Source: Candidatus Multivoradales bacterium
GTDB taxonomy: Bacteria > Acidobacteriota > Thermoanaerobaculia > Multivoradales > JAHEKO01
Direction: 5' to 3'
Assembly: GCA_965223855.1 (NCBI GenBank)
Contig: CBDCXM010000009.1
Span: forward strand, 1,856,001-1,920,000
DNA: 64,000 bases
Part shown: piece by piece, positions 231 to 55,115 of the stretch
Layout of the letters: every line of letters begins with the position of its first letter
Position numbering within the stretch: position 1 is the first letter of the stretch
Notes under the pieces: generated by a model
Database searches by the model: none
What the model saw: only the letters and a program-made list of their open reading frames with translations
What the model was told of the DNA's origin: nothing
Made by a program: the position numbers and the translations under genes

Positions 231-3200
231 TCAGTCAGGAGTCCCGCTGCATCTGAGAGCCTCGGCGAAGGGACGATCGTCGACCGCGCGGCCCGGTGCG
301 GGCGGGTGGGCGACGGTTCTGGCTGGCGGATAGGCGGTCATCGCGTGGTAGGGCATCGGTCCGACGGTCTGCGAGGCGGCGGTGTTGAGGTCACCGTCCT
401 TGACCCAGCCGTCGGTGTGGAGGACGAAGTGCCGGCTCCATCCGTCCGGCAGAGGAGGAAGCTCGGTGGCGGGGTAGCGGACGGTGAGAGCGTCCCCGGC
501 GTTCATGACGACGAGCCGGTCGTCGTTGCCGGCGAGCAGGGGCGAGACGGCGCCGTAGGAGGTGTAGCTGCCGATCAGATCGCGGAATCGGACCTCCGTA
601 GTTACGCGGTCTGCGTCGAAGAGATGGGGGCCGAACGCGTCGTCCCGGTAGAGCCTGGAGAAGCCGCGGTAGGAAAGCCGGGCATCCCGTGGCCGCAACC
701 GTGTGAGCCTGGCGTCGATGGTGCGCCGCTCGGCGACGGCGGCGGCGTCCCAGTAGATCTGGAAGTTGGTCGTCAGGCGGAGCTCGAACGGTGCGTCCCC
801 CAAGCCGGGCGGCAGGTCGACCACGACCGCCTTTCGCTTTCCCGCGGGAATCCGGAAGCCGCCGGTGACTTCGGCCCAGTCGCCGCCGAAATGACGGTAC
901 TCGAGGCGCGTCAGCGGCGCTGCGGGCGTGCGCTGCTGGGAGAGGGCGACATTGATGCTGGTGTCGGTCGGGAAGATCCACCCCCACAGGACGAGCTGCA
1001 GGTCACCGTCGCCGCGCCTCGAGACGCGATCGAACTCCAGTTCCAGCGTGTGAGGAGCCGCGACCCCCTGATAGCGGCCCAGCGGCAGTCCTCCGACGTG
1101 ACGACCGTCCCTGGCGGTGAGTCGGCGCGTCACGTCACGGCCGGAGTGATCACGTGCTGCCGTCGGTGGCCGCAGCTCGCCGAGCCAGGAGACGCTCGGC
1201 GCCGCCGGGTGAGGCGGCAGCGAGAAGCTCTCGTCGACGACGAAGCCGACCTCGGCCGGGGCATCGTAGACCCACAGCTCCTGGCGGTCGAGGTAGACCG
1301 CCTCCCACAGCTCCTCGGTGACGATCATCCAGTAGTCCCCCCCGACCGTCTCGAGAGCCGTCGGCGGGATGCGCACGAAGTCTCTACCCGACTGATGGGG
1401 TGCGGCGCTGCCGTCCGGGAAGGTCATCCCGAGCGGAGACTTCCACAGGAGATCGGTGACGAACTCGAAGCGCGACCCGTTCCAGGCGTAGAGGAACGGA
1501 CACGACCCCTTCAGTACCTGCTCCTCGTTCAGAATCTGGTCGGCGGCGAGGGCCGACCAGCTCTGGGCGAGGCCGTTGGTCCACAGCACCCGCAGGAGGT
1601 CCGCCTGGCGGGAGGCGCCGAGTCCGATGTGCAGGATGCGGCCCTCCGATCGCAGGTGCTGGTAGCGCCCTCCGGAGCGGACCTCGACCCGGGAGCCGTA
1701 CCCCTGCGAATGGTTCTTCGCGTTGTTCTCGACTCTTCCGGTCAGCGAGAGGCGGAGCCAGTGATTGAGATTGCCGCCTTCGTTGCGCCACAGGGCGAGC
1801 CCGTCGGCTGCCGATGCGACGAGGTCGAGGTCACCGTCCTCGTCCCAGTCGCCGGCCGAGAGGTGCTCCACGCGATTGTCGAGGGCCGCGACCTCCTCGA
1901 TCTCGAAGCTCCCGCCAAGATTCCTCGCAAAGTGGAAGGAACCGGCGGTGAGAACGGCGATGTCGGGGTCGCCGTCGTTGTCGAAGTCGGCGACCTCTGC
2001 CTCGTGCCAGGGAGTCTCGGCGATCTCGACGATCTCGAAACCGCCCGTCGTTCTACGGACGAGGGAGGCGCCGGAGCTTCCCCAGGCGAGGAGGTCGAAG
2101 AGGCCGTCGTTGTCGAAGTCGGAGACTTCGAGTCCCGCGACGCCCGCGGGATCGTCGAGCGGGATAGCGCTCGCCTCGAAGAGCCCGCGCCGCACGTTCT
2201 CGAGGTAGGAGAGGCCGTCGGCGGTGACAGCGACGGCATCGGAGTCTCCGTCGTCGTCGAAGTCGGCGCTCTCGAAGTCGGTGAGGATGCCGGTTAGGCC
2301 GCCGGGAAGTCCGGTGCCGTCCTTCCAGGCGTCGGCCTCCCAGGTGCCGTCGGCGTTGTTGCGCAGGTAGTGGCTGCGAGCTTCGTCGCTGACGACGAGG
2401 TCGAGGTCGCCGTCGTGATCGAGATCGACAGGCGCCACGAGGCCGACGTCGCCCGACACGGCAGTGAGCTCCACCTGCGCTCCGGTTCGTCCAGAGAGCC
2501 ACCACAAGCTCCCCGAGTGGTCGACGATGCGGTCGGAGCTCCGGTCCTGGTCGAAGTCGAGCCCGCTCCAGACGCGGACATCGACCCCGGCGTCGATCTC
2601 GAGCGCGCCGATCGACGATCCTGTGCCGCGCTGCCACCCCTCCTCGCTCCAGCGCATCTCCTCCACCCGGCCTCCGACGACGGCGAGCAGGATGTCGCCG
2701 CCGCGAACGATCGTCAACGGCCGGCCCGAGAGTTCCACCGGCCACCGGTTGCCGAGACTCCATCCGAAGGAGATGTCGCTCCCCCCCTGGATACTGGCCG
2801 GCAGAGGAGGGACGAAGTCGAGCTGCAGGAAGAAGCCGCGACCGACCTCGCCGCGGCCGACGAGCGGTCGCAGGTGTTGGCGGTAGAGCTCACCCGGCCG
2901 CAGCAGGTTGCGCAAAACCTGGGCTGCCGGTGCCGCGGCGGCTGGGTCTCCTTCCGGCGCGGCGGCATCGAGGATCGCCTCCGCCCACGGAGCCGCCTCC
3001 TCGTCGAAGCCGTCCAACCGGTCCTCGATCGCGTAGAGATCGTCGGCCATGTCGGGGCCGGCGACGGCCGCTGCGGTCACGAGCCGATCGACGAGCAGAA
3101 CCAGGTTCTCGGGGTCGGCCGCGGCGGCCCTCCTCGCCGCTGCGGCCGCAGCCTGCGGGTCGCCGTCCTCGGTGTGCCAGCGACTGGCCAGGTAGTACGG

Positions 3201-3617
3201 CCGCGGATCGCGCGGATGAGCGGCGGCGAACGTCTCGATCGCCGCCGTCCAGGGCCGGCCGAGCTCGCGCTCGAGGCGCGCCCTCAGATGGAGGAGGGAG
3301 GGGTGATTCGGGTCGAGCGCCGCAGCGCGATCGAGGGCGGCGCCCGCCGCTTCGAGATCGCCCGCCTCGAGGTGGCTGATCGCGAGGTTGAGGGGCGGCA
3401 GGAGGTTGTCCGGCAGCAGTGCCTCGAGGACGGTCAGCGCCCTGACGGCTCTCTCCCACTCCCCGGCATCGATGGCGACCAGCGCCTGACCGTGGACCGC
3501 TGCCGCCTCGCGATAGTGCTCTTCGGTCGCAGTCGAATCGGGCGATGTCGCGGCAGCGGTCGAGGTGGCGGCCGCCAGAGCCGCGGCCAGCGCGATCGCG
3601 ATCGGCAGAGACGTCAT
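231..3617 (-). CDS. Secreted TPR + FG-GAP propeller + ASPIC/UnbV protein with extra C-terminal domain (~1128 aa)
   Basis: Start re-called at ATG 3617 (signal peptide MTSLPIAIALAAALAAA). N-terminal TPR-like helices; repeated DxDxDGDxD Ca-binding motifs; ASPIC/UnbV segment (GYGSRVEV...LHIGLG...LRVLW); then SCPFLYAWNG C-terminal domain. Confidence 0.85.
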   Translation of the reverse strand: MTSLPIAIALAAALAAATSTAAATSPDSTATEEHYREAAAVHGQALVAIDAGEWERAVRALTVLEALLPDNLLPPLNLAISHLEAGDLEAAGAALDRAAALDPNHPSLLHLRARLERELGRPWTAAIETFAAAHPRDPRPYYLASRWHTEDGDPQAAAAAARRAAAADPENLVLLVDRLVTAAAVAGPDMADDLYAIEDRLDGFDEEAAPWAEAILDAAAPEGDPAAAAPAAQVLRNLLRPGELYRQHLRPLVGRGEVGRGFFLQLDFVPPLPASIQGGSDISFGWSLGNRWPVELSGRPLTIVRGGDILLAVVGGRVEEMRWSEEGWQRGTGSSIGALEIDAGVDVRVWSGLDFDQDRSSDRIVDHSGSLWWLSGRTGAQVELTAVSGDVGLVAPVDLDHDGDLDLVVSDEARSHYLRNNADGTWEADAWKDGTGLPGGLTGILTDFESADFDDDGDSDAVAVTADGLSYLENVRRGLFEASAIPLDDPAGVAGLEVSDFDNDGLFDLLAWGSSGASLVRRTTGGFEIVEIAETPWHEAEVADFDNDGDPDIAVLTAGSFHFARNLGGSFEIEEVAALDNRVEHLSAGDWDEDGDLDLVASAADGLALWRNEGGNLNHWLRLSLTGRVENNAKNHSQGYGSRVEVRSGGRYQHLRSEGRILHIGLGASRQADLLRVLWTNGLAQSWSALAADQILNEEQVLKGSCPFLYAWNGSRFEFVTDLLWKSPLGMTFPDGSAAPHQSGRDFVRIPPTALETVGGDYWMIVTEELWEAVYLDRQELWVYDAPAEVGFVVDESFSLPPHPAAPSVSWLGELRPPTAARDHSGRDVTRRLTARDGRHVGGLPLGRYQGVAAPHTLELEFDRVSRRGDGDLQLVLWGWIFPTDTSINVALSQQRTPAAPLTRLEYRHFGGDWAEVTGGFRIPAGKRKAVVVDLPPGLGDAPFELRLTTNFQIYWDAAAVAERRTIDARLTRLRPRDARLSYRGFSRLYRDDAFGPHLFDADRVTTEVRFRDLIGSYTSYGAVSPLLAGNDDRLVVMNAGDALTVRYPATELPPLPDGWSRHFVLHTDGWVKDGDLNTAASQTVGPMPYHAMTAYPPARTVAHPPAPGRAVDDRPFAEALRCSGTPD

Positions 3618-3640
3618 GTGTGTGCGCCCGATCGCCGACA

Positions 3641-3840
3641 CTAGCCCGGACTTCTCACGCCGGTGTGGTCTGGTAGGTCGTAGGTTGCTGAAGATACAAG
3701 GCTCCCGGTCGCGAGCACCGCAGGCTCGTCCGTAGCTGCGTCGAGGAGAGCAGCGACCGAAAAACGCAGTAGATTCAGTGACGTACGGCCTACCTGAGTA
3801 GTTCGGTGAGCAGTGCAGCGGCGTGAGAGGTCCGGGCCAG
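3641..3840. repeat. MITE-like palindromic element, copy 1 (200 bp)
   Basis: Ends CTAGCCCGGACTTCTCACGCCG / CGGCGTGAGAGGTCCGGGCCAG form terminal inverted repeats. The body aligns with the reverse complement of 43942-44126. Confidence 0.85.
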
Positions 3841-3915
3841 GAGACTGTAGCAGGCGGAACGGGCGTGGCAGCCACCCGCCCACGGCTGGTCACGGGCTGC
3901 CGGTCGGGGCCCCAG

Positions 3916-7208: not shown

Positions 7209-7250
7209 GGGCTAGGTGCTCATGGGTTGGGTGCCCAAGGGCTGGGTGCC
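7206..7250. repeat. 3 x 15-bp imperfect tandem repeat at the regulator start
   Basis: catgggctaggtgct / catgggttgggtgcc / caagggctgggtgcc. Confidence 0.8.
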
Positions 7251-7270
7251 AGGCGCTTGTACCCGGTCGT

Positions 7271-7386: not shown

Positions 7387-9810
7387 TCAGGGACTCGGCG
7401 AGCCGACCGGTGGAGGCGTGACCGGCCGTGCCGTGCCTGCGCCGAATCGCAGCTCGTAGCGCGCGCCGGTCGCGAGCCGCCCGAACCGCTCGCTACTGCC
7501 GTCGGGCCACAGCACCTCGACCTCGACGGAACTGCGCTCTCCCACACCAATATGCACCGAGCCGGCGCGATGACTGAGGTAGCCGCCGCCTCCCGAGACC
7601 GCGCGCCAGGCAGCGAAGCCATCGTCGTCCGTGACGAGGAGCTGCGCACCGATGGCGTCTAGGTTGACGCCGCGCTCGGGCGCGCCCACCAGGTCGAACA
7701 ACAGCCACGATCTCTCGCCGTGCGGCAGCTCGTTGCGGAACAGGCGCGCCTCGGCGTGGAAGGTGCTGACCGCCAGGTCGGGATCGCCGTCGAGGTCGTA
7801 GTCGACGCTCACGGCTCCGCGGGAGTTGTACCCCTGGAGCGCCAGGGCGGTCGCCACCGGCTCGAAGTCGAGCGGCTCGTCCCGGCGCAGCAGCAGGTTG
7901 GCTTCGCGACTGTTGTTGATCGGATAGGTCCTTCCGCTGCCGTCGGGATGGAGGCGGTCCTGCGTGAAGGTGAGGTAGTCGGTGAAGCCGTTGGCGACGA
8001 ACAGGTCCTCGTCGCCGTCGAGGTCGTAGTCGAGGAACTCGCCCGCCCAGGCCCAGCCGGTGTCGTGGGAGAGAAACTCGGAGTCCTCGAAGCGCCGATA
8101 GGTCGGAGGAGACTCCGGCGGGTCTCCGGGGGTCGCAGGGCCGGAGAGCAGCAGGGTGTTGGTCTCGATGGGGCTCTCCTCGATCGGATCCCAGACCCAG
8201 ATATTGGTGACGAAGACGTCGGGCTTGCGATCGCCGTCGAGGTCGGCGAACGACACGTTCATCCCGTGATGGCGATCGTCGGCCCCCGCCTGCTCGCCGA
8301 TCGATTCGAAGCGACCCTTGCCGTCGTTGAGGAGCAGGGCGTTGCGACCGAAGTCGTTGGCGACGTAGAGGTCCTGGTCACCGTCGAGATCGAGGTCCGC
8401 GTGCGAGAGCGCCTGCGCCCAGCCGGTGTTGCCGTCGTCGCTCAGGCGCTCGAACCGCATTCCCCCGAGATTGCGGAAGAGCACGTTCGGCTGCGCGTTC
8501 TCAGCGCTACCCCCGGACCACGGATGGTTGCCCTCGAGGTAGTTGCCGAATCGACCGACATAGAGGTCGAGCAGACCGTCGTTGTCGATGTCGACCGCAG
8601 TTGCGGGCCCGCTGATCGAGCCCGCCTCCCCGAGACCGGACTCGGCGGTGACGTCGGTGAAGCCTCCCTGGCCGTCGTTGGCGAACAGCCGGTCGGAGTC
8701 GCGCGCCACGGTGAAGAAGAGGTCGCGATCGCCGTCGTTGTCGAAATCGGCGGCGACCGCCATCCTCGCCTCGCCGTCGAACTCGAGCCCTGCCGCTTGC
8801 GTGCGGTCCTCGAAGGTACCGTCGCCGAGGTTGCGGAACCAGGAGCAGCCGCGCCCGCCGCAGAGGACGAGGTCGGGCCAGCGGTCGCCGTCGAGGTCGG
8901 CGGCCGTCACGCCGCCGCCGCTGAAGGTCGGCGCCAGGGGGCCGAAGCGCCGGAAGCTCGAAAGCCAGTCGCTGGTGACGTGGCGGAAGTCGAGTCCCGC
9001 AGCGGCGGTGACGTCGAGGAAGTCGTCGGCCGCAGGGTCGGGGACGGTAGGCACGATCTCGCTCGCATCGGCGGCGACGATCGTTCGCGCCGCGGCGCGC
9101 AGGTGCCGGGTGGCGACGTGAGGCTCCAGCTCGCTTCGCGCATGGAGACCAGCGAGACGCAGGACCAGGAGCGCGTAGGCGTTGACGCCGTCGTGAAGCC
9201 GCTCGAGGGCGGCGTCCGACAGGGGCCGCGGATCGCCGGCAGGGTAGAGGGCCCCCTCGTCGAGATCGGACAGGGCGCGCCAGGCGACGCCGGTGGCGGC
9301 GAACGACTCGAGGTCGATCGTCTCGACCGCGAGGCGGCCTGCCGGCGGCGCCGCGGGAAAGAAGATCAGCTCACCGAACTCGTTCGCCGAAGCCGGCAGC
9401 GAGTGGGCGAGGAGGCCGGCGACGAAGTCGGGAGTGACCACCCCCAACCCGGTCTGTCGCGCGCCTTCCTCCAGCGCCTGGAGGAAGCCGGCCGCGACCT
9501 GAGCGGTGATGCGGTGGAGCGTCCCGAGGAGTCGCCGGAACTCCGCCTGGTCCGTCGGCATCGGGTAGCGGGCCCAGTAGCGCGACAGGTTGCGCAGCAG
9601 GAGAGCCTCCGGGGAGTCCGAGAGCCGGGGATCTTCGGCCGCCCGCTCGAGCCGCTCGAGAGAGCGGCCCGAGATCGAGCCGGCGACCGGCTCCGCCACG
9701 CCCGATGCCTCTGTCGGAGTCTGCTGCCCGTGTTGACCGTGCACGCTCGTCGCGGTGACCCCGGCGACGAGCGCGGCGGTCACGACGGCGCGGATGCCGT
9801 CGATGCTCAG
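7387..9810 (-). CDS. CRTAC1/ASPIC-UnbV family protein with N-terminal helical (possible double histone-fold) domain
   Basis: Many DxDxDGxxD repeats; C-terminal NLDAIGA...GGGYLSH...HIGVG...VLWPDG. Start uncertain (CTG 9810 overlapping the upstream stop, or GTG 9783). Confidence 0.85.
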   Translation of the reverse strand: MSIDGIRAVVTAALVAGVTATSVHGQHGQQTPTEASGVAEPVAGSISGRSLERLERAAEDPRLSDSPEALLLRNLSRYWARYPMPTDQAEFRRLLGTLHRITAQVAAGFLQALEEGARQTGLGVVTPDFVAGLLAHSLPASANEFGELIFFPAAPPAGRLAVETIDLESFAATGVAWRALSDLDEGALYPAGDPRPLSDAALERLHDGVNAYALLVLRLAGLHARSELEPHVATRHLRAAARTIVAADASEIVPTVPDPAADDFLDVTAAAGLDFRHVTSDWLSSFRRFGPLAPTFSGGGVTAADLDGDRWPDLVLCGGRGCSWFRNLGDGTFEDRTQAAGLEFDGEARMAVAADFDNDGDRDLFFTVARDSDRLFANDGQGGFTDVTAESGLGEAGSISGPATAVDIDNDGLLDLYVGRFGNYLEGNHPWSGGSAENAQPNVLFRNLGGMRFERLSDDGNTGWAQALSHADLDLDGDQDLYVANDFGRNALLLNDGKGRFESIGEQAGADDRHHGMNVSFADLDGDRKPDVFVTNIWVWDPIEESPIETNTLLLSGPATPGDPPESPPTYRRFEDSEFLSHDTGWAWAGEFLDYDLDGDEDLFVANGFTDYLTFTQDRLHPDGSGRTYPINNSREANLLLRRDEPLDFEPVATALALQGYNSRGAVSVDYDLDGDPDLAVSTFHAEARLFRNELPHGERSWLLFDLVGAPERGVNLDAIGAQLLVTDDDGFAAWRAVSGGGGYLSHRAGSVHIGVGERSSVEVEVLWPDGSSERFGRLATGARYELRFGAGTARPVTPPPVGSPSP

Positions 9811-38714: not shown

Positions 38715-38759
38715 AGCTTACAAATCCCACACCCCTAGGTCAAGCAAGGGGGTTGCCAA
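38715..38759 (-). promoter_or_regulatory. Abutting sigma70-type and sigma54-type promoter motifs upstream of the TonB receptor
   Basis: Minus strand TTGACC-N17-TAAGCT (38743-38715) and TGGCAACCCCCTTGCT (GG-N10-GC; 38758-38743). Confidence 0.6.
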
Positions 38760-41693: not shown

Positions 41694-41696
41694 GAA

Positions 41697-46283: not shown

Positions 46284-48245
46284 TCAACGCCAGGGCGACC
46301 GGACGGGAGAGCCGTTGCGGTAGCGGTCGAGGTCTTCGGAGAGGGCGGCCGCCAGCCCTTCGTCGCCCGCGTTCCGTGATTCGACGAGCAGCCTCTCGGC
46401 CAGCCCGACGGCCTCCTCGAGCTGGCCGACCTCCGCGAGCGCCATCGCCAGGGTGCGGCCACGATCGAGGGTCGGTGCCGAGCGGATGAGTCCGCCGGCG
46501 ATCTCGAGCGCCCCTGGGCCGTCGCGCACGGAGTCGTCGTCGGAGGTGGCCAGCAGACGTGCGAGGGTGTTCTGCACCTCCGGCTGTCCGGGTTCGAGCC
46601 GAAGGCTCGATTCGAGGTGACTCCGGGCGTCGCGGTCGCGGCCGGCGAGCAGGAGGGCGATGGTGCGTCCGAGGCGACTCTCCCGGTCGCCAGGGTCGAT
46701 TTCCAGTGCGGCCGCGAAATGGTCCGCGGCCTCCGAGAAGCGCTGTTCGCGCCCTGCGATCGTCGCCAGCAGCCGGTGCGCGTCGATGAGTTGCGGTGTC
46801 AGCTCGAGGGCTCGCTCCAGACTGCCGCGGGCCGCGCCCAGATCACCCCGGCGCATGGCGATCGTCGCCAGCTGGAACTGCGCCGCCGCCTGCGACGGCT
46901 CGTCTGCCGTCGGCGCCAGATCCCGGAGGGCCCGAGCGGCGTCGTCGTCGCGTCCGATGGCGGACAGCACCTGGGCGATCCCGAGCACGACCTCGGCGTC
47001 GCCGGGGGCGCGTGCCAGGAGCGCGTCGAGGTCCTCGAGGGCGTCGTCGCTGCGGCCGAGGCGCGCCCATAGGAGATTGCGCTGCACCCGGCTCGAACGG
47101 TCCTGCGGGTCGATCGCGATGGCCGATTCGTAGTGCGTCAGCGCCTCCTCGAACTCGCCCTGTGTCGCCAGCAGTCCGGCGAGATTGACGTGCGAGTCCG
47201 AGTGGTTCGGGTCGAGTGCCAGGGCACCTTCGAGGTGCTCCCGTGCCTCTCCGAGCCGACCCACCCGACCGAGAAGGGTGCCGAGGTTGTAGCGCGCGCT
47301 GATGTCTTGCGGGGCACGTCGAATCGCTTCCTCGAACTGTGCGATCGCCTCGTCGACCGCACCGAGCTCGGCGAGAACGTCGGCGAGGGCGAGCCGGGCG
47401 TCGAGCAGGTCGGGTCGCTCCCGCAGCGCCAGCCGGTAGGCATCGATCGCCGTTTCGAGGTCGCCGGCGATCCGCGACTGCGCTGCCAGGGTGACGTAAC
47501 GCGAAGCGCCTCTCATCAGTGAGCCGAGCACCTCGATCGGCGGGTCGGGGAACCTCACCGGCTCGCGCCCCTGCCGGGAGAGCAGCTCGCGGGCGCGTTC
47601 GCGATCGCCGAGAGCCCGGTAGGCGAGGCCGAGCTGATAGGCCGCGGCGGTGGCCTGAGGCTGTTCCCTGAGGACCTCCTCGAGCAGGGGGGCAGCGATC
47701 TCCGGCTCCCCCTGCATCGTCGCGATCTGGGCGATGCCGTATCGGGCCGCGGCGGTTCCCGGCACCCGCTCCAGCACCGCCTCGAACTGCAGGCGAGCGT
47801 CTTCGAGCCGGCCGGCAGTGAGCAGAACCCGGGCGAGTCGGATCTGTGCCGGCAACCAGTCCGGCCGCAGTTCCAACGCGCGACGGAACCTCGCCTCGGC
47901 AGCCGCCGGGCGGCCGTCCTGCTCGTCGAGCACGCCGAGGTAGTACTCCCACAGAGGGTCGTCCGGCGCGCCCTTCGCCGCCTCCTCGAAGGCATCCCGA
48001 GCCGCGTCGAGCAGTTCGTAGGCGAGGAGCACGCGGCCGAGCTCGCCGTGGGCTCTAGCAGCGTCGTCGGCCTCGGCGCCGCTCGCGAGGGCGAGCATCT
48101 CCTCGACATGAGCCCGGATCGCCGGCTCCATGAGAGACAGGTCGGGTCGCGGGACGTCGGCCACCGCCAGGGTGGCAGACGCGATCCACGCGACGGCAGC
48201 GGCGCAGATCCGGCCCATCCGGGTGAAGGGGCGCCTGCCGGTCAC
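46284..48245 (-). CDS. Secreted tetratricopeptide repeat protein (paralogue of 13800)
   Basis: GTGA overlap with the upstream CRTAC1 gene; TPRs; C-terminal LARLLATS...RDG...TLAMALAE...Y..G.P.R.PW. Confidence 0.88.
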   Translation of the reverse strand: MTGRRPFTRMGRICAAAVAWIASATLAVADVPRPDLSLMEPAIRAHVEEMLALASGAEADDAARAHGELGRVLLAYELLDAARDAFEEAAKGAPDDPLWEYYLGVLDEQDGRPAAAEARFRRALELRPDWLPAQIRLARVLLTAGRLEDARLQFEAVLERVPGTAAARYGIAQIATMQGEPEIAAPLLEEVLREQPQATAAAYQLGLAYRALGDRERARELLSRQGREPVRFPDPPIEVLGSLMRGASRYVTLAAQSRIAGDLETAIDAYRLALRERPDLLDARLALADVLAELGAVDEAIAQFEEAIRRAPQDISARYNLGTLLGRVGRLGEAREHLEGALALDPNHSDSHVNLAGLLATQGEFEEALTHYESAIAIDPQDRSSRVQRNLLWARLGRSDDALEDLDALLARAPGDAEVVLGIAQVLSAIGRDDDAARALRDLAPTADEPSQAAAQFQLATIAMRRGDLGAARGSLERALELTPQLIDAHRLLATIAGREQRFSEAADHFAAALEIDPGDRESRLGRTIALLLAGRDRDARSHLESSLRLEPGQPEVQNTLARLLATSDDDSVRDGPGALEIAGGLIRSAPTLDRGRTLAMALAEVGQLEEAVGLAERLLVESRNAGDEGLAAALSEDLDRYRNGSPVRSPWR

Positions 48246-50047
48246 GGCGCCGCGAGGTCGGCCCACACGAGCACCCTGGCGGACGGAACTCCGCTCAGCC
48301 GGATCGAGCGCGCTCCCGGCCGGGTCAGTGTGACGCTCTCGATCGGAGTCGAAGCGCCGAGAAACACGCGCGGATCCCGTGCCGAAGCGTAGCTGCCGTC
48401 TCGCCTCGAGCGGCGCCACAGGGTCTCTCCCGAGGCGGTCTCGGCGCGAGCCTTCCAGCCGGTGCCGCCATCGCGCGAAGAGATGCCGAGCCATGGATTG
48501 GCAGGTGGAGCGCCGAGGAGGAGTCGGACCGGGCCGTCGTTGTTGCTGACCGCGATGTCCTCGTCGCCGTCGTTGTCGACGTCGCCGAAAGCGGAGCCGC
48601 GGCTGACCTCCGAGACGGCGAAGGCGGGCGCCGTGCCGCTGACCTCCTCGAATCGCCCGTCCCTCAGATTGCGGAAGATCTGGTTCGGCTGGTGGAGCGG
48701 GAACGGGTCTCCCGCCTCGACGAGCTCCTCGATCGCCCGAACGGCACCGTTGGCGACGAACAGATCGAGCCGGCCGTCGCGGTCGAAATCGATCCAGCCG
48801 GTGCCGAAGCCGGTGGCGACCCAACTGGTGCTGCCGAGGCCGGAGGTGACTGTCGCGTCATCGAAGACGCCCGTGCCGTCGTTGACGTACAGGGTGTTCG
48901 TCTCCCCTGTGAGGTGCGCCATGAAGAGGTCTTCGTCGCCGTCGCCGTCGAAGTCCCCGGCATCGACCCCCATCGACGCCTCGGGCTTGCCTTCCCAGTT
49001 GACGGCGGCACCGGCGAAGACCGCGTCGTTGAGAAACGAGCCGTCGCGCTGGTTGATCCGCAACTGGTTGGCCGTCATGTCGTTGGCGACGTAGAGGTCG
49101 ATCCAGTCGTCGCCGTTGAAGTCGGTGGCGACGACCCCCAGGGCGCCGCCGAACTCCTCCAATGCGCCTGAGGCAGGCGTGCCGTCCTCGAAGGTGCCGT
49201 CGCCGCGGTTGCGCAACAGACGGTCGGGAAAGGGACGGAAGGCGAGCGGCCCGCAATAGTCGGGTGCCCCGGTCGCATTGGTGCACGACGAGCCGGAAGT
49301 GAAGCGCTGGTCGACGTAGTTGCCGACGTAGAGGTCGAGGTGCCCGTCCCGATCGAAATCGGCGAAGGCTGCGGAGACGCTCCACCGGATGTCTCCGGCG
49401 CCGGAGGTCTCGGTGACGTCGGAGAAGGTGCCGTCGCCGTTGTTGCGCAGCAACTGATTGGGGCCGAAGTTGGTGACGTAGAGGTCGGTGTCGCCATCCC
49501 CGTCGTAGTCGCCGGCCGCGACGCCCATGCCGTAGTGAGGGGCGTCGATCGCGCTCGCCTCGGTCCGATCGACAAAGGCCAGCCGCAGCGCACCGTCGGC
49601 GTCGGCCCAGGCGTCGTTGCGATAGAGCCGGTCGGTCAGGGGCAACGAGCCGTCCGCCGGGGAGACGAGGGCGTCCTCGAGGGACTCTTCCGGGTTGGGA
49701 ATCCCCCCCTGGACGAGATAGAGATCGAGGTCACCGTCGCCGTCGAAGTCGAGCAGGCCGAGACCCGAACCGGTCACCTCGACGAGGTAGAGCCCGCCCG
49801 TGCGACCGTTGAAGTGGCGAAAGTCGAGGCCGGCCGTCTCGCCGACCTCCTCGAAGAGCGGTTTCGCCGCGCCTTCGGCGCGAGCGACTCCGGAGCCCAC
49901 GCCGGTGATGATCGCGAGAAGGGCCGCCAGCGCAAGTCGGGCCGGGCCTCGGGGGCGGGTCGCCCGCGACTGCGTCCGGGGGGACTGCGACTGCGACTGG
50001 GGCTGTGGCTGGGGCTGGGGCTGGGGCTGCGAGACGGGCTCCGACAC
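48242..50047 (-). CDS. CRTAC1/ASPIC-UnbV family protein (subfamily B, HFNG type; paralogue of 12034)
   Basis: FRHFNGRTGGLYLVEVTGSG, DYCGP, PEASMG, DGSYASARD. N-terminal (PQ)n(SQ)n hexamer repeat at 49983-50030. Confidence 0.9.
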   Translation of the reverse strand: MSEPVSQPQPQPQPQPQSQSQSPRTQSRATRPRGPARLALAALLAIITGVGSGVARAEGAAKPLFEEVGETAGLDFRHFNGRTGGLYLVEVTGSGLGLLDFDGDGDLDLYLVQGGIPNPEESLEDALVSPADGSLPLTDRLYRNDAWADADGALRLAFVDRTEASAIDAPHYGMGVAAGDYDGDGDTDLYVTNFGPNQLLRNNGDGTFSDVTETSGAGDIRWSVSAAFADFDRDGHLDLYVGNYVDQRFTSGSSCTNATGAPDYCGPLAFRPFPDRLLRNRGDGTFEDGTPASGALEEFGGALGVVATDFNGDDWIDLYVANDMTANQLRINQRDGSFLNDAVFAGAAVNWEGKPEASMGVDAGDFDGDGDEDLFMAHLTGETNTLYVNDGTGVFDDATVTSGLGSTSWVATGFGTGWIDFDRDGRLDLFVANGAVRAIEELVEAGDPFPLHQPNQIFRNLRDGRFEEVSGTAPAFAVSEVSRGSAFGDVDNDGDEDIAVSNNDGPVRLLLGAPPANPWLGISSRDGGTGWKARAETASGETLWRRSRRDGSYASARDPRVFLGASTPIESVTLTRPGARSIRLSGVPSARVLVWADLAAP

Positions 50048-50083
50048 GGCGGGACTCTACCAGCCGTCGGCTATCATGCCGGG
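50048..50083. promoter_or_regulatory. Compact bidirectional promoter, probably leaderless in both directions
   Basis: TAGAGT (minus, 50059-50054) lies 6 nt from GTG 50047; TATCAT (plus, 50072-50077) lies 6 nt from GTG 50084. No SD on either side. Confidence 0.55.
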
Positions 50084-52297
50084 GTGACGCCGAAGGCTCT
50101 TGCACTGGTCGTCGGGGGCTTCGCAGCGACGCTGTGTGGGGGCTTCGGCTGCGGCTCCGGGGACGCGCCGCCCTCCGCATCCGACGCCGTGGACAGCTCC
50201 TCCGAGCTTGCGTCGCCGGCAGCTGCCGAGTCGAGCGAATCGGGCGGGATCGTGGCTGCGCCCTTGCCGAGCATCGAGGTCGAGAACCTGGTGCTGATCA
50301 CGATCGACACCCTGCGCGCGGACCGGCTCGGCTTCGCCGGCCACGAGACCGCATCGACGCCGTGGCTCGACCGGCTCGCGTCCGCCGGCTGGGTGTTCGA
50401 CTATGCGCATTCTCACGGTGTCATGACCTTGCCCACCCACACCTCCATACTGACCGGGCGCTTGCCCTACGAGCACGGGGTGAGGGACAACAGCGGCTTC
50501 GTGCTCTCCGCTGAGGTTCCGACGGCGGCGACGCTTCTCGGGGCCGCCGGGTTTTCAACAGCGGCAGTGGTCGGAGCCTTCCCGCTCGACCGGCGGTACG
50601 GTCTCGCCCGTGGCTTCGACCTCTACGACGACGCTTATCCCGAGGGCGGCGGGCCGGGAGCGGTCGATCCCCAGAGGCCCGGATCGGAGGTCGTCGGCCG
50701 GGGCCTCGAATGGTGGCGCGACAACGTCGGGAAGCGGCGTTACCTCTGGCTTCACCTCTACGACCCGCACGCGCCCTACACGCCGCCCGCTGACGCTGCC
50801 GCCCGCGCCGGGGGAGACGCCTACGACGGCGAGGTCACGGTCGTAGACGATGCGCTGGCGCCGCTTCTGAGTCTCTTTCTCGACGGGGAGGAGCCGTCGA
50901 CCCTCATCGTCGTGACGTCGGACCATGGTGAGGCGCTCGGCGAGCACGGCGAGGTCACACACGGCCTCTTCGCCTACGAACCGACCCTCAGAGTGCCGCT
51001 CGTCCTGTGGGCGCCCGGGCTCGGATCCGGCCGGTCGAGCCGTCAGGTGCGGCACGTCGATCTGCTGCCGACGATGCTCGAGGCGGCCGGGGTCGAGGCC
51101 TCCGGGGTGCAGGCCGCCGAGCTGGCGCCGGGCGCCGCGGCAGGCGCCGGCGAGCTGGCCGGGACCTCGCTCTTCGAGCCGCCCTCCTCGTCGACGGCCA
51201 CCTACTTCGAGGCAATCACGGCGAGTCTCGACCGTGGATGGGCGCCGCTGCGGGGCGTGGTGCGCGGCTCGCGCAAGTTCATCGAGCTGCCGATCACGGA
51301 GCTCTACGATCTGTCGAGCGATACCTCCGAGAAGGACAACCTCGCCCCGGAGCGCCCGGAGGAGGTGGCCGGCCTCAGGACGGTGCTCCCGCCGGCTTCG
51401 GCCTGGCCGCCGGAGCGCGGCTCGGTCTCGGCGGAAGAGGAGCGCAAGCTTCGGAGTCTCGGCTATCTCGGAGGCTCGGCGGCGCCGAAGAAGGACTACA
51501 CGGCCGACGACGACCCGAAGCGGCTCGTGCATCTCGACCGTCAGGTGCACACCGCCATCGACCGCTACCATCGCGGCCGCCTCGACGAGGCGGAGCGGCT
51601 GTTGCGCGGAGTGCTGGCGGAGCGCCCCGACATGGGTGTGGCGTCGTACTACCTGGCGCAGACGCTGCTGGAGGACGGCCGTCTGAACGAGGCGGTGGAG
51701 GTGATGTCTCGGGCTCAGCGCCGGGGCTCGGCGACCACCGCGCTGCGCCGCCAGCTCGGACTCTCCCTCGGCGCCCTCGGACGGTTCGACGAAGCGATCG
51801 ACGCCCTCGAGCCGTTGGCGGAGGCCGGGGAGACGGAAGCGATGCGGGCGCTCGGACAGGTGCTTTCGGATGCCGGGCGGCTGAGGGAGGCGGAGGCGAT
51901 CCTCAACCGCATCTTCGAGATCGACTCTCGCTCCCCCGAAGCTCACGAAACGCTCGCCCTGAACGCTCTGCGCGCCGGCGACTGGCCGACGGCCCAGCGG
52001 CAGGCACGGCTGGCGCTCGATCTCAACGACCGCCTCGACCAGTCCTGGAACTACCTGGGATCGGCGCGCTATCAGCTCGGGGATCGGCGCGGTGCGTTCG
52101 AGGCGTGGCGTCGTGCGGTGGAGCAGGGAATCGAGAATTTCGACGCGCTCTACAACCTCGCGATCGTCGCGCGCGAACTGGGGGAGAGTGACGCGGCCCG
52201 CTCCGCGCTGCGGCGCTTCCTCGCCGGTGCGCCCCGTGGGCAGTACGGCGAGGACCTCGCGACGGCGCGGCGGTGGCTCGACGAACTGGGCGGATGA
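50084..52297 (+). CDS. Sulfatase-like hydrolase/transferase + TPR, probable lipoprotein
   Basis: Start re-called at GTG 50084; GFGC lipobox-like; ITIDTLRAD, TLPTH, HLYDPH, SDHGE, LRSLGY; C-terminal TPRs. Confidence 0.88.
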   Translation: MTPKALALVVGGFAATLCGGFGCGSGDAPPSASDAVDSSSELASPAAAESSESGGIVAAPLPSIEVENLVLITIDTLRADRLGFAGHETASTPWLDRLASAGWVFDYAHSHGVMTLPTHTSILTGRLPYEHGVRDNSGFVLSAEVPTAATLLGAAGFSTAAVVGAFPLDRRYGLARGFDLYDDAYPEGGGPGAVDPQRPGSEVVGRGLEWWRDNVGKRRYLWLHLYDPHAPYTPPADAAARAGGDAYDGEVTVVDDALAPLLSLFLDGEEPSTLIVVTSDHGEALGEHGEVTHGLFAYEPTLRVPLVLWAPGLGSGRSSRQVRHVDLLPTMLEAAGVEASGVQAAELAPGAAAGAGELAGTSLFEPPSSSTATYFEAITASLDRGWAPLRGVVRGSRKFIELPITELYDLSSDTSEKDNLAPERPEEVAGLRTVLPPASAWPPERGSVSAEEERKLRSLGYLGGSAAPKKDYTADDDPKRLVHLDRQVHTAIDRYHRGRLDEAERLLRGVLAERPDMGVASYYLAQTLLEDGRLNEAVEVMSRAQRRGSATTALRRQLGLSLGALGRFDEAIDALEPLAEAGETEAMRALGQVLSDAGRLREAEAILNRIFEIDSRSPEAHETLALNALRAGDWPTAQRQARLALDLNDRLDQSWNYLGSARYQLGDRRGAFEAWRRAVEQGIENFDALYNLAIVARELGESDAARSALRRFLAGAPRGQYGEDLATARRWLDELGG

Positions 52298-53949
52298 GTC
52301 GAACGACGGCGATCGTGCGACTGGCCGCGCTCATGCTGGCCGTCGCCTGTGTCGCGGCGGGCGGCGCTGTCGAAGGCGCCGCAGCGTCGTCACGGCTCGG
52401 GGACGAGTTCGATGGCTGGATCGAGCAACGCCGCCGAGTCGCCGAAGCCCTCGCAGCCGGAGGGTCGCTCGCGCCTGAGCGGCTGGCGGCGATGTACGGG
52501 GCGTTGGCTCGCACCTACCTGCTACGGGCGGATCTTGCCGCGGCACGAGCGCACTTCGACAGGGCCGCCGACCTCGCGCCGGGGGACTTCCGCTGGGCTC
52601 ACTACCTCGGCGTCGTGGCGGCCCGGATGGAGGATCGCGCCGCCGCCGTGAGGCGCTTCACGAGCTCTTCAGAACTCGCCCCGTGGTTCGAACCGTCTCG
52701 GGAGTGGCTGTCGAGGCTCGAAGGCGATGGGGTGGTCGATGCGCCGACGCATGCGACCTCCGACCCTCTCATCGACGGGTTGGCCGCCTTCGGGCGGCGA
52801 CTGCGGGTCGAGTTCGCGCAGGACAAGCTGGAAACAGGTGACGTCGACGGGGCGCTCGCGGAGCTCGAGACGGTGTTGACCTTCGATCCCGGAGACTCGA
52901 GGGCGCGCTACCAGCTCGCGGTGGCGCAGTTTCGCGCCGGCAGAGCCGCGGAAGCCCTCGCCAACGTCCGACGGGTGGTGGAGGAGGAGCCCGACTTCGG
53001 CGAGGCGCACTTCAGCCTCGCGTCGGTGCTCGCGGCTCGCGGCGAGCGCGACGAAGCGCTCCTTCACTTTCGCCACGCTTTCGCCGCGGACCGGGGCAAC
53101 TCCGCGGTCCACGAGCGTCTGGCGAGCGAGCTCGCTGCCAGAGGCGAGGTCGAAGAGTCCGTGGCGCTTTACTCGACCCTCGTCGCCCGCGAGCCGCATC
53201 GGGTGGGCGCGGTGCGCGACTACGCGAGCCTCCTTGCAGGCGCGGGCCGGGCGGAAGAGGCGGTCCGCCAGCTCCGGCGTTCGGTCGAGGCCGTTTCGGC
53301 GGCGGAGGCTCGAGCGGTCCTGCTGCTCGACGCCGGACGGATCGGCGATGCGGCGGGACACGGCGATGCGGCGATCGCGGACCTCGAGCAGGTCGTCGCC
53401 CTCGTCCCTCGGCAGGCGACGGGTCATGCCGAGCTGGCGGCCGCGCTGGCCCGATCCGGTCGCTTCGACGAAGCCGCCGAGAGCTACGGCCGGTGGATCG
53501 AGATCGAGCCGGAGAGCGTCACGCCGTGGTTCTCGAGGGCGCTGGCTCTGCTGCTGGCCGGCCGGGACGCTCCGGCTCGCGAGACCCTGGAGGCGGCGCT
53601 CGACCGACTGCCCGGGGAGACATCGCTGACTCACCTGCTGGCGCGATTGCTGGCCACGAGCGAGGACGCGGCGGTACGCGACGGCGCCAGAGCGCTGATT
53701 CTCGCGCGATCGGTTCTCGCCGGCGCATCCTCGCCCGAGCATGCCGAGACGGTCGCCATGGCGCTCGCCGAGACCGGGAGCTTCGACGAAGCGGTTCGGT
53801 GGCAGGAGCGGATCGTCGAGACCCTCGGCGGGGCGGAAAGCCCTGCCGCGAGTGCGGCCGCCGGACGGCTGGAGCTCTACCGGCGCGGCGAGGCTGCCCG
53901 ATCGCCCTGGGCGCCGCCGGCAACCTCCACCGGCGCTGCCGGACGGTAG
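52294..53949 (+). CDS. Secreted tetratricopeptide repeat protein (paralogue of 13800/46284)
   Basis: ATGA overlap; PGDFRWAHYLG; shared C-terminal LARLLATS...RDG...HAETVAMALAE...RSPW. Confidence 0.85.
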   Translation: MSRTTAIVRLAALMLAVACVAAGGAVEGAAASSRLGDEFDGWIEQRRRVAEALAAGGSLAPERLAAMYGALARTYLLRADLAAARAHFDRAADLAPGDFRWAHYLGVVAARMEDRAAAVRRFTSSSELAPWFEPSREWLSRLEGDGVVDAPTHATSDPLIDGLAAFGRRLRVEFAQDKLETGDVDGALAELETVLTFDPGDSRARYQLAVAQFRAGRAAEALANVRRVVEEEPDFGEAHFSLASVLAARGERDEALLHFRHAFAADRGNSAVHERLASELAARGEVEESVALYSTLVAREPHRVGAVRDYASLLAGAGRAEEAVRQLRRSVEAVSAAEARAVLLLDAGRIGDAAGHGDAAIADLEQVVALVPRQATGHAELAAALARSGRFDEAAESYGRWIEIEPESVTPWFSRALALLLAGRDAPARETLEAALDRLPGETSLTHLLARLLATSEDAAVRDGARALILARSVLAGASSPEHAETVAMALAETGSFDEAVRWQERIVETLGGAESPAASAAAGRLELYRRGEAARSPWAPPATSTGAAGR

Positions 53950-55115
53950 CCGACGCCGCCGTACCCCTCGGCTCGCGGCACCCACGCATCATCGAAGTCC
54001 GGCGCCAAAGGCTGGAAGCGGTTGAGTGTTTCCGAGACGGTCCCGCGGAGGTCGGGCGTCGCACCCCCGAGCACGCAGCCGGTGACGGTAGCGGAGGGCG
54101 GCACGTCCAGTTCGTAGCGGCTTCCCGGCGCGCTCCCGCCCGCGAGCGTGTTGTCCCAGAAGATGCTCTCCTCGAAGACGCTGCCGTTCCCCCGGTCGTC
54201 GACGCCGTTCCAGTTGCCGGTGAAGGTCGATCGACGGACCTCGACCCGCGAACCCTCGAAGACGGTGAGCGCCCCCGAGCCGTGTTCGCGGTTGTAGACC
54301 GAGGTGAAGTCGGGCCGCGGTCCGTCGATCAGCGGGACGGGGGCGACGTTCGAGATGTTGCCGACGAACAGGCAGTTCTCGAACACCGCGGCACTGCCGT
54401 GGAGCAGATCGACCGCCGAGCCGGTCAGCCTCGCCCGGTTGCCCTGAAAGATCACGTTGCGGAAGGTCGCCGCCTGCTCGTCGAAGCCCCGATGCTCGAC
54501 GGAGACGCCCGCTCCGCACGGGCTGGCGAAGTTGTCGCGGATCACCACGTTCTCGACGGTCGGGTACGAGCGTCCGAAGATCTTGATCGCGCCGCCGTCG
54601 GAATGGATGTAGAGGTGGTGCGAGAGTTCGGGGATCGAGTCGATCGCGGGGTCGAAATCGGTCGGCTGGTCGCCTGCGTCGGCGTGGTAGTTGTTGGCCC
54701 CGGTCAGGGTGACCCCTCGAAGCACGGTACGCGGCGAAATGCCGTCACCGAAATAGACGACGTGATTCACCACCGCCGGGAAGCTGGCGGCGAACGGGTC
54801 GGCGATTCGCGGATTGGCGGCGGTCAGCACGGCCTCTCCCTCACCCTCGAGCACCAGCCCGTCATGCCGGGCGACGAAGGTCACGAGCGCCTGACCGGGT
54901 TCGGCCGGCCGGTGGACGCCCGCCTCGAGCACGACCCGGTCGATGTCCGGGTCGGCGGCCGCCGCGTCGAGAGCCGCCTGAATCGACTCGCCCGGCCGCA
55001 CCCTCAGAGGGGAAGAAGCGGCGCCGGGCGCCGAAGCGGCAAGGAGGGCGATCGGCAGCCAGAAGCTGACCGCCTTCCTGGAGGGCGCGCGCCCTCGGAA
55101 CCTCGGGATTGACAC
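53877..55115 (-). CDS. Secreted right-handed parallel beta-helix (pectin-lyase-like fold) protein
   Basis: VRPGESIQAALD N-cap, DGGAIKI, N.A...GAGV, F.NC.F.GN repeats. Start approximate. Confidence 0.75.
   Translation of the reverse strand: MSIPRFRGRAPSRKAVSFWLPIALLAASAPGAASSPLRVRPGESIQAALDAAAADPDIDRVVLEAGVHRPAEPGQALVTFVARHDGLVLEGEGEAVLTAANPRIADPFAASFPAVVNHVVYFGDGISPRTVLRGVTLTGANNYHADAGDQPTDFDPAIDSIPELSHHLYIHSDGGAIKIFGRSYPTVENVVIRDNFASPCGAGVSVEHRGFDEQAATFRNVIFQGNRARLTGSAVDLLHGSAAVFENCLFVGNISNVAPVPLIDGPRPDFTSVYNREHGSGALTVFEGSRVEVRRSTFTGNWNGVDDRGNGSVFEESIFWDNTLAGGSAPGSRYELDVPPSATVTGCVLGGATPDLRGTVSETLNRFQPLAPDFDDAWVPRAEGYGGVGYRPAAPVEVAGGAQGDRAASPRR

Follow-up and report, generated by a model that had tools for sequence, protein, structure and literature searches.

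Murine CRTAC1, solved by crystallography (9etn), combines an FG-GAP calcium-loop propeller with a following UnbV_ASPIC domain (PF07593). Enediyne biosynthetic clusters are the known context of UnbV, and a full-text literature search found no described function for bacterial propellers of the CRTAC1/UnbV type. TonB-dependent transporters (TBDTs) with an N-terminal CarboxypepD_reg domain are characteristic of the SusC/SusD PULs of Bacteroidota, where they stand beside helical-repeat proteins and lipoproteins with a potential role in substrate capture and processing. Proteins of the transglutaminase (TGase) fold occur beside VWA and TPR proteins in the known MoxR-VWA-transglutaminase-like and Bat-type operons.

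Likenesses to all of these systems are found in approximately 25 adjoining genes for exported proteins at positions 231-55115 of the window, the 64,000-nt stretch of DNA analyzed here, from an uncultured marine Acidobacterium (Table 1). The cluster propellers share the two-domain arrangement of vertebrate CRTAC1 but are bacterial, carry Sec-type export signals, occur as 12 copies in a row, are paired with or fused to TPR proteins, and lack an EGF-like domain in Pfam searches. No polyketide synthase or enediyne tailoring gene is among the Pfam matches of the window ORFs. Unlike the MoxR-VWA-transglutaminase and Bat operons, the cluster has no Pfam match to a MoxR AAA+ ATPase or DUF58 gene, its members possess signal peptides or lipoboxes, and its VWA proteins belong to TIGR03436, an acidobacterial type. 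In contrast to SusC/SusD PULs, the genes belong to the phylum Acidobacteriota and form many transcription units, and the cluster ORFs include no SusD-family match and no ECF, anti-sigma, or hybrid two-component regulator (Pfam and NCBIfam scans). No CAZyme was found, either in the cluster by Pfam or in gap ORFs from its counterparts in two other genera (genomes G014 and G020), and none of these three clusters contains a glycoside hydrolase, lyase, SusD-type protein, ECF regulator, or hybrid two-component regulator. The nearest approach to a CAZyme is the beta-helix protein g27, an accessory member that adjoins the conserved core described below in only 1 of 48 loci.

The best reading of the cluster as a whole is a vertically inherited envelope gene neighborhood of a Thermoanaerobaculia lineage. 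Its 55 kb constitute 1.2% of the 4.52-Mb genome and contain 11 of the 20 UnbV_ASPIC matches. The genes occupy both strands and make up at least 11 transcription units. Stop/start overlaps of 4 bp occur at seven junctions, four of which join a propeller to a TPR gene, in line with the original prediction of interleaved propeller and TPR genes (TPR genes at 13800, 20612, 46284, and 52294). FeoB and DtxR-FeoA genes identified by Pfam at 3916-7208 are a lineage-specific insertion. All cluster products carry a signal peptide or lipobox, as had been predicted for nearly all of them; these were called by a hydrophobicity heuristic and reading by eye rather than by a dedicated predictor, and the lipoboxes of g16 and g25 were read by eye. 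The predicted partners, i.e., two sulfatase-fold-TPR lipoproteins, a TBDT, a transglutaminase-TPR protein, a DUF3179 protein, two VWA proteins, and a beta-helix protein, were all recovered with Pfam or NCBIfam. TPR is fused with four partner types in this one cluster. Three of them, the propeller, the alkaline-phosphatase (AP) fold, and the TGase fold, score above Pfam cut-offs; the fourth, a CarboxypepD_reg-like domain in g17, scores below its own.

Table 1. Genes of the cluster, with coordinates in the window (AP, alkaline-phosphatase superfamily).
Gene	Product	Coordinates	Strand	Evidence
g01	Signal peptide, TPR, FG-GAP propeller (5 Ca loops), UnbV_ASPIC, 429-aa C-terminal region without Pfam match	231..3617	-	Pfam; G014 orthologue 44% over 1103 aa
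g04	Propeller + UnbV_ASPIC, ~300-aa N-terminal extension; start uncertain, 9783 or 9882	7387..9783	-	Pfam; G014 orthologue 47%
g05	Propeller + UnbV_ASPIC, subfamily A, two frames in window	9807..11761	-	Pfam
g06	Propeller + UnbV_ASPIC, subfamily C, opens g06-g09 operon	12034..13803	+	Pfam, fold model
g07	Secreted TPR protein, start overlaps g06 stop by 4 bp	13800..15590	+	Pfam
g08	Propeller + UnbV_ASPIC, subfamily B, 4-bp overlap with g07	15587..17233	+	Pfam, phmmer
g09	Propeller + UnbV_ASPIC, subfamily B, 4-bp overlap with g08	17230..18858	+	Pfam
g10	Propeller + UnbV_ASPIC, subfamily B	18843..20582	-	Pfam; G020 orthologue 56%
g11	Secreted TPR protein, start overlaps g12 stop by 4 bp	20612..22270	-	Pfam; relatives adjoin core in many loci
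g12	~230-aa helical N-terminal region (TPR sub-threshold), then propeller + UnbV_ASPIC	22267..24528	-	Pfam; orthologues in G014, G020, G022 54-57%
g13	TPR fused to propeller + UnbV_ASPIC	24696..27290	+	Pfam
g14	Propeller + UnbV_ASPIC, subfamily A	27599..29593	-	Pfam
g15	Propeller + UnbV_ASPIC, subfamily A; start possibly 29853	29883..31790	+	Pfam
g16	Lipoprotein, AP (Pfam Sulfatase) domain with T-L-P-S-H, then TPR	31813..34041	-	Pfam, motif alignment
g17	Secreted CarboxypepD_reg-like domain (28.4 bits, cut-off 32.3), then TPR	34068..35207	-	Pfam
g18	TonB-dependent transporter, CarboxypepD_reg + Plug + large barrel	35546..38536	-	Pfam, fold match
g19	Lipoprotein, transglutaminase-fold domain (Cys117-His158-Asp173), then TPR	39073..40218	+	Pfam
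g20	Secreted DUF3179 protein, 4-bp overlap with g19	40215..41693	+	Pfam
g21	Secreted VWA protein (TIGR03436), DxSxS MIDAS; C-terminal region with sub-threshold Ig-like matches only	41697..43865	+	NCBIfam
g22	VWA paralog of g21 (38% identity), MIDAS intact	44156..46273	+	NCBIfam
g23	Secreted TPR protein, paralog of g07 (35%), start overlaps g24 stop by 4 bp	46284..48245	-	Pfam
g24	Propeller, subfamily C, UnbV_ASPIC sub-threshold	48242..50047	-	Pfam
g25	Second AP-fold (T-L-P-T-H) + TPR lipoprotein, 35% identical to g16	50084..52297	+	Pfam, motif alignment
g26	Secreted TPR protein, g07/g23 type, 4-bp overlap with g25	52294..53949	+	Pfam
g27	Secreted right-handed beta-helix protein (Beta_helix)	53877..55115	-	Pfam

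All 12 predicted propeller genes were found at the expected positions or within start-codon choice of them. FG-GAP_3/FG-GAP is above the Pfam cut-off in each, and UnbV_ASPIC (cut-off 23.4 bits) is above it in 11, with scores between 24.1 and 65.5 bits; the exception, g24 (14.4 bits), is 52% identical to g06 over its full length. Each of the 12 contains between 4 and 7 Dx[DN]x[DN]G loops. The model of g06, the sole propeller modelled, is an all-beta propeller (pLDDT 82.8, pTM 0.86) with CRTAC1 (9etn) as its top Foldseek match (E 2.5e-30, TM 0.67/0.71, 20% identity) and with fungal GlcNAc lectins and integrin alpha next in rank; g08 matches 9etn in phmmer (E 3.1e-18). Residues conserved in at least 85% of 38 aligned propellers are confined to repeat and calcium-loop positions, and therefore the family has no shared catalytic site. 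The paralogs of the window are 23-62% identical to each other, and each possesses orthologues in other genera, with which they cluster in the tree; thus, the paralogy is old, rather than a recent species-specific expansion. Propellers of this type are common: of 41 genomes searched, 40 encode them, with 1-37 copies each. The two frames of g05 probably result from a one-base assembly error (a missing G), since position 10345 is followed by an additional G in contigs from two runs of one sample, which yields a single 651-aa frame, and the orthologue occupies one frame in three of the four congeners searched.

The stop/start overlap within propeller-TPR pairs is kept in several genera. Of the TPR-propeller fusions predicted originally, those at 231 and 24696 are clear, and that at 22267 (g12) has only a sub-threshold TPR match (E >= 0.014). 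In G020 and G014, two neighboring frames encode what g13 joins in one protein, and this fusion argues for contact between propeller and TPR protein. The complex check that had been suggested for adjacent propeller-TPR pairs was run on g06 and g07 and gave a score of 0.37 (runs 0.32, 0.37, and 0.42), the best of three controls scoring 0.00, with a pLDDT of at least 84 for the partners and at least 48% contact agreement between runs. This result falls in a weak band: the mark is passed by 116/157 solved complexes and 2/215 mismatches, but passes with scores up to 0.60 comprise only 18/157 solved complexes and both passing mismatches. The predicted binding of g06 and g07 is thus weakly supported in silico.

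Conservation was surveyed in 67 related loci anchored on g19 orthologues, in genomes that are kin, so that the counts overstate independence. G014 and G020 possess nearly the whole cluster with local order kept and 45-64% amino-acid identity, in the same chromosomal slot between CNNM and thrS. A six-gene core, consisting of the transporter, CarboxypepD_reg-TPR, AP-fold-TPR, and divergent TGase-TPR genes and two VWA genes, is present in most of the 67 loci. Near g19 orthologues, the TBDT was found in 47/48 loci, CarboxypepD_reg-TPR in 43/48, AP-fold-TPR in 39/48, and the two VWA genes in 52/56, and the DUF3179 gene (g20) is variable (16/56). Since the partners are syntenic in G014 and G020, the paralogs are old, and the core recurs, there is good support for a functional connection among these types of gene. 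The stronger claim of the original prediction, a single machine, is not supported, given the number of transcription units and the occurrence of the modules apart from each other.

The transporter g18 exceeds the Pfam cut-offs for CarboxypepD_reg and for Plug (PF07715, 24.4 bits against 23.9; 25.7-29.8 bits in its paralog and orthologues). Its barrel is of the CarboxypepD_reg/OMP_b-brl_4 type; the barrel family PF25183 exceeds its cut-off in the orthologues from G014 and G020 as well as in the 96% paralog, with no match in g18 itself. A profile match to PhuR has E 1.3e-4, and the Foldseek matches listed are TBDTs throughout, for a poor query model (pLDDT 56.4) with a low-confidence plug. TBDT paralogs of this kind number three in the host genome, and their downstream cassettes differ: g18 is followed by CarboxypepD_reg-TPR and AP-fold-TPR genes; the second (95.9% DNA identity to g18 over the ORF alone) by a small wHTH-like ORF assigned by eye, a propeller, and a TPR gene; and the third, an 80% copy, by Trans_reg_C, a Zn peptidase, and an M13 peptidase. 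Comparison of the cassettes therefore places the propeller-TPR pair where substrate-processing enzymes stand.

The lipoproteins g16 and g25 score 159.8 and 122.6 bits with Pfam Sulfatase (PF00884); a further match, to the Type I phosphodiesterase family, lies in their N-terminal part. They keep the fold and metal-site motifs (SDHGE, GEHG) of Type I sulfatases, and their best solved relatives are sulfatases, but they differ in bearing a C-terminal TPR region and a lipid anchor. T-L-P-S-H in g16 and T-L-P-T-H in g25 align with the sulfatase nucleophile motif C/S-x-P-x-R; in its place, formylglycine cannot form. The "sulfatase" label is thus misleading, formylglycine sulfatases are ruled out, and an annotation trap is corrected. 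Transglut_core in g19 scores 25.6 bits (cut-off 23), and C117, H158, and D173, a triad assigned by position and by eye, are invariant in three aligned sequences. For g21 and g22, TIGR03436 scores 175.1 and 141.9 bits (cut-off 81.25), Pfam finds no VWA, and both contain the MIDAS motif DLSFS.

Our best explanation, held tentatively, is that the cluster encodes a TonB-dependent system of capture and import. Its core is the TBDT, CarboxypepD_reg-TPR, and AP-fold-TPR operon facing the divergent operon of the TGase-fold-TPR lipoprotein, an optional DUF3179 protein, and two MIDAS-VWA proteins. Around it, the bacterial family has assembled CRTAC1-like calcium propellers of ancient divergence, each coupled or fused to an exported TPR protein. 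These propellers may serve as lectin-like binding modules with faces differing between subfamilies, and the TPR proteins would associate with them physically, either as scaffolds or as partners in fixed stoichiometry. Both AP-fold lipoproteins may be phosphoester-type hydrolases with a Thr nucleophile that trim a bound substrate, and g18 would import the trimmed product; the cluster genes point to no particular substrate. What the analysis observed is gene content, export signals, conservation, old paralogy, active-site motifs, and folds; association of the proteins, ligand binding, the direction of transport, and the substrate are inferences from these. PUL-like uptake was the better of the two functions proposed originally, although the analogy with a utilization locus is thin because of the missing glycoside hydrolases and other CAZymes, lyases, SusD-type proteins, and PUL-type regulators.

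MIDAS-VWA proteins, a transglutaminase fold, and integrin-like propellers are as suited to adhesion or the building of a matrix as to uptake. VWA proteins and propellers might be adhesins or matrix components, cross-linked or trimmed by the TGase-fold lipoprotein and assembled on a TPR scaffold, with the TBDT-type barrel as anchor or export port. This is unlikely in our estimate: DxSxS is kept in both VWA proteins, the Cys-His-Asp triad is invariant, the fold matches of g06 include integrin alpha chains and lectins, and exported products come without a catabolic enzyme set in the cluster scans, but the TGase-VWA operon has as its steadiest neighbor a TBDT whose plug is intact and whose fold is that of an importer, peptidases lie downstream of a paralogous TBDT, and Pfam detects no sortase, pilus, or polysaccharide-export genes in the cluster. 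A bolder form, which we rate as quite improbable, would make the cluster a bacterial counterpart of the integrin head, in which propeller and MIDAS-VWA heterodimers bind ligand, with TPR proteins retaining them at the outer membrane and the TGase-fold lipoprotein cross-linking or processing them. As in the integrin alpha/beta head, an FG-GAP propeller and a MIDAS VWA-type domain are encoded together, but here as separate secreted proteins in different operons. If true, the cluster would encode an apparatus for adhesion or matrix sensing that shares its two folds with animal integrins and is diversified by propeller swaps. A role in export, in which the CarboxypepD_reg-type barrel would let propellers or VWA proteins out through the outer membrane, as proposed for the Oar protein of Myxococcus, is highly improbable; the barrel type and the many secreted proteins encoded alongside agree with it, but all fold matches listed are importers and no test here favors export.

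It is somewhat unlikely that there is no single system and that independent conserved modules (propeller and TPR; TBDT, CarboxypepD_reg-TPR, and AP-fold-TPR; TGase-TPR and VWA pairs) merely share one old slot. Besides the multiple transcription units, 19 of the 44 fully flanked loci have no propeller within 10 kb of the core, propeller-TPR pairs are kept without an orthologous g19 or core in G017 and G022 (complete genomes of the same family), internal rearrangements differ between genera, and the unrelated FeoB and DtxR-FeoA genes can sit within the cluster. Against this, at least one propeller lies within 10 kb of the core in the other 25/44 loci, far above a rough expectation of ~7% from 8-37 copies per genome; G017 and G022 show the TBDT, AP-fold-TPR, and propeller-TPR pattern together in diverged versions; the TPR fusions span four partner types; and the same gene types reunite elsewhere in the host genome, where 7 of the 13 propeller matches outside the window, counted by eye, have a partner-type gene within 10 kb.

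According to one paper (PMC3174227), members of the phylum Acidobacteria are difficult to cultivate, and little is known about their ecological roles. The cluster is the richest context seen here for bacterial CRTAC1/UnbV-type propellers, with twelve old paralogs, dedicated TPR partners, and one fusion. These propellers are repeatably tied to one transporter family, the other copies of which bear a propeller-TPR pair or peptidases at the same place. This leads to the testable proposal that CRTAC1-like propellers may serve TonB-dependent uptake in Acidobacteria as accessory binding modules.

Because the window has a G+C content of 64–70%, mechanical ORF lists are crowded; reading frames were picked by codon-position G+C and then checked with Pfam and NCBIfam. 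The Pfam scan recovered all 12 predicted FG-GAP_3/FG-GAP propeller genes at their predicted positions. The UnbV_ASPIC domain ascribed to each of them exceeds the Pfam cut-off (23.4 bits) in 11, but the gene at 48242 (g24) reaches only 14.4 bits; over its whole length it shares 52% identity with the gene at 12034 (g06). The four free-standing TPR genes, the two lipobox-bearing proteins combining Sulfatase and TPR domains, the CarboxypepD_reg/Plug transporter, the Transglut_core-TPR lipoprotein, the DUF3179 gene, and the beta-helix protein were likewise confirmed. Both VWA proteins were recognized as TIGR03436 by NCBIfam (175 and 142 bits; cut-off, 81), whereas Pfam detected no VWA domain in either. 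Identities of the TPR proteins as PEP-CTERM/PrsT, MamA, PilW, Tgl, or GltE were rejected, since all matches fell far below the NCBIfam cut-offs and thus reflect generic TPR likeness. The 55 kb of the cluster contain 11 of the 20 UnbV_ASPIC matches of the genome (assembly of 4.52 Mb). Rfam reported only two tRNAs in the whole window, and neither a riboswitch nor a leader close to the transporter.

Start codons were placed where a hydrophobic signal-like N-terminus follows, signal peptides and lipoboxes being judged by eye. With the starts so chosen, the predicted 4-bp stop/start overlaps are found at seven junctions of the cluster, including four between propeller and TPR genes. The TPR-propeller fusion proposed for three genes is clear at 231 (g01) and 24696 (g13), but at 22267 it is supported by sub-threshold matches only. 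The whole g01 protein is conserved in G014, a genome of another genus (44% identity over 1103 aa), although its last 429 residues form an unassigned domain. In g24, a Pro/Gln-rich stretch of approximately 35 aa precedes the hydrophobic segment. The divergent lipoprotein gene g25 begins at 50084, only 36 bp away from the g24 start, and therefore one of these two starts may be wrong.

Coordinates of features in the window and in one related genome
Feature	Position	Strand	Remarks
g01, C-terminal region	231–1520	-	Last 429 of 1128 aa of the TPR-propeller protein; no Pfam match at E ≤ 1
FeoB (749 aa) and DtxR-type repressor fused to FeoA	3916–7208	-	Pfam
g05, split propeller gene	9807–11761		Break near 10280–10340
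g18, transporter	35546–38536		
g18 part matching the contig C8 copy	35552–38495		L099, 5984–8930; 95.9% DNA identity over 2954 bp
Conserved intergenic stretch AGGTCAAGCAAGGGG	about 38737–38751		Best 12-mer GTCAAGCAAGGG at 38739
Start region of g24 and divergent start of g25	49900–50120		
Two tRNA genes	55183–55256 and 55378–55451	+	Between cluster and thrS, at the right border of the cluster
Marker counterpart, genome G024, contig C9	115639–116562		Three pieces, in-frame TGA

The propeller gene g05 is spread over two frames. Four congeneric genomes were searched, and three have the orthologue in one frame. In addition, two runs of a single sample, probably that of the window, gave contigs with one more G after position 10345 (GGG to GGGG), and adding this base yields a single frame of 651 aa. 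A pseudogene was therefore rejected; the frameshift is probably a homopolymer assembly error in the window, and hence all 12 propeller genes are probably intact. Other frames of this genome may carry similar errors.

UnbV_ASPIC genes were detected in 40 of 41 related genomes, with 1–37 matches each (a tally that includes G005), while genome G028 has neither these genes nor an orthologue of g19, the TGase-fold-TPR lipoprotein used as the marker gene. Two nearly closed genomes from other genera contain hotspots, with 10 matches in 38 kb (G020) and 8 in 42 kb (G014). As the original prediction expected, these hotspots hold counterparts of almost all window genes, at 45–64% identity and with local order kept; DUF3179 is absent from the G014 cluster. 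In all three genera the cluster is flanked by a CNNM/CorC transporter gene and thrS, a shared slot that indicates vertical descent with internal rearrangement. The same slot rules out a horizontal island bounded by tRNAs, so the two tRNA genes are not an integration scar. The FeoB and DtxR-FeoA genes, which overlap by 4 bp and are flanked on both sides by propeller genes, are a lineage-specific insertion, since the orthologues of g01 and g04 are adjacent in G014, without Feo genes between them. The DtxR-FeoA fusion has a hydrophobic N-terminus.

Pairwise identities among the window propellers range from 23 to 62%. Three subfamilies were distinguished: A (g05, g14, and g15; about 60% identical), B (g08, g09, and g10; about 51%), and C (g06 and g24), each member of the last being followed by a TPR gene (g07 and g23, respectively; 35% identity). 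A quick maximum-likelihood tree built from 38 propellers, with 13 of 35 inner forks unresolved, places each window paralog or subfamily with sequences from other genera. These identities and groupings rule out one recent species-specific tandem expansion, part of the outcome that would have spoken against the original prediction; the paralogs are old.

The core around the marker was assessed in 67 loci fetched from species-representative genomes and scanned with the window proteins. Among loci with enough flank, which come from kin genomes and do not provide independent counts, the marker is accompanied by the transporter in 47 of 48, by the CPDreg-TPR gene in 43 of 48, and by the AP-fold (Pfam Sulfatase)-TPR gene in 39 of 48, the exact order of these three being kept in 36 of 48; two VWA genes lie downstream in 52 of 56 and DUF3179 is nearby in 16 of 56, and at least one propeller is located within 10 kb in 25 of 44, compared with a rough expectation from copy numbers of about 7%. 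Of 24 genomes in the same family, 18 carry a high-scoring marker orthologue (over about 370 bits, paralog-level matches reaching 240 bits or less), as do 8 of 16 belonging to other families of that order; G017 and G022, both complete genomes, have none. The fragmented counterpart in G024 may be a broken copy.

The transporter g18 exceeds the Pfam cut-offs for CarboxypepD_reg and Plug. The barrel family PF25183 is above cut-off in its 96% paralog (70.5 bits) and two orthologues; for g18 itself Pfam gave no such match even at E ≤ 1, presumably an effect of HMMER speed filters. A phmmer comparison of g18 with solved structures gave no match, and a profile search gave a weak PhuR match only. With a pLDDT of 56.4, its AF2 model deserves little confidence and served solely to establish the class of fold matches, those listed being all TonB-dependent transporters.

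Three alternative cassettes follow members of this transporter family: the CPDreg-TPR and AP-fold-TPR genes in the window; behind the copy on contig C8 of this genome, a small ORF that looks winged-helix-like by eye, followed by a propeller and a TPR gene; and, behind a further paralog in this genome at 80% protein identity, a Trans_reg_C protein and then two peptidases (a Zn metallopeptidase and one of the M13 type). The propeller-TPR pair therefore occupies the position of processing enzymes. The DNA likeness between g18 and the contig C8 copy ends at the ORF ends, the neighboring genes being different, suggesting that a recent duplication or gene conversion affected the transporter gene alone. 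No small regulator gene was found between g18 and the CPDreg-TPR gene (g17), nor any Trans_reg_C relative in the window. Propeller-TPR pairs also occur three times each in G017 and G022, near diverged transporters (24–26% identity) and AP-fold-TPR genes, and G022 additionally has a TGase-TPR gene at 30% identity and VWA-like genes. A partner-type gene lies no more than 10 kb from 7 of the 13 propeller matches that this genome has outside the window (manual count). By eye, most propellers and TPR partners in the pairs from G022, G017, and contig C8 (L094–L098) have a Cys following the hydrophobic segment and so seem to carry signals of the lipoprotein type; the window pairs g06/g07 and g24/g23 have ordinary signal peptides by appearance.

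The divergent region between g18 and g19 is 536 bp long. Of 57 orthologous intergenic regions between transporter and TGase genes, 28 contain its best 12-mer with up to two mismatches (shuffled control: maximum 16, mean 3.5), and the conserved stretch may serve as a promoter or operator element.

The model of the propeller g06 (pLDDT 82.8, pTM 0.86) matches best the fold of murine CRTAC1 (E 2.5e-30), followed by fungal GlcNAc lectins, integrin alpha chains, and rhamnogalacturonan lyase YesW. Residues conserved in at least 85% of the 38 propellers are confined to repeat and calcium-loop positions, which suggests varied binding faces rather than a single catalytic site. Propeller and TPR genes overlap or abut in four genera. 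The true fusion g13 has a hydrophilic linker, and its counterparts in G020 and G014 are split into separate frames, the G020 propeller frame having its own signal-like N-terminus. For the proposed propeller-TPR coupling, a complex prediction of the adjacent pair g06 (34–589) and g07 (153–596) scored 0.37, compared with 0.00 for the best control, and lends it weak support. The AP-fold proteins g16 and g25 have T-L-P-S/T-H at the nucleophile position, and hence are not formylglycine sulfatases; they may be Thr-nucleophile phosphoesterases. The TGase-fold residues Cys117, His158, and Asp173 do not vary among three aligned sequences, and DxSxS is intact in both VWA proteins.

UnbV is known from the enediyne context, and roles of CRTAC1 are known in vertebrates. 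A literature search found no paper naming both '9ETN' and 'CRTAC1'. Of the papers found to mention the family, roughly half deal with bacteria. The ASPIC/UnbV (CRTAC1) family is listed among Solibacter paralog families (PMC3174227), is present in multiple copies in Poribacteria (PMC3909097), and has a member adjoining hydrazine-synthase homologues (PMC12758564); the passages concerned in these three papers give it no function.

Taken as a whole, the cluster is tentatively regarded as a transporter-centred capture and import system, the reading that we rate most likely. The window links TPR-CRTAC1 modules and a TGase-lipoprotein-VWA operon with a single transporter family. Weighing against the import reading, no catabolic enzymes or PUL-type regulators were found in the cluster, the genes form many transcription units, and the core and the propeller-TPR pairs are separable. 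That the locus merely brings together independent modules is rather unlikely. The VWA proteins, the TGase, and the integrin-like propellers would also suit an adhesion or matrix system, which we consider the least probable of the three.
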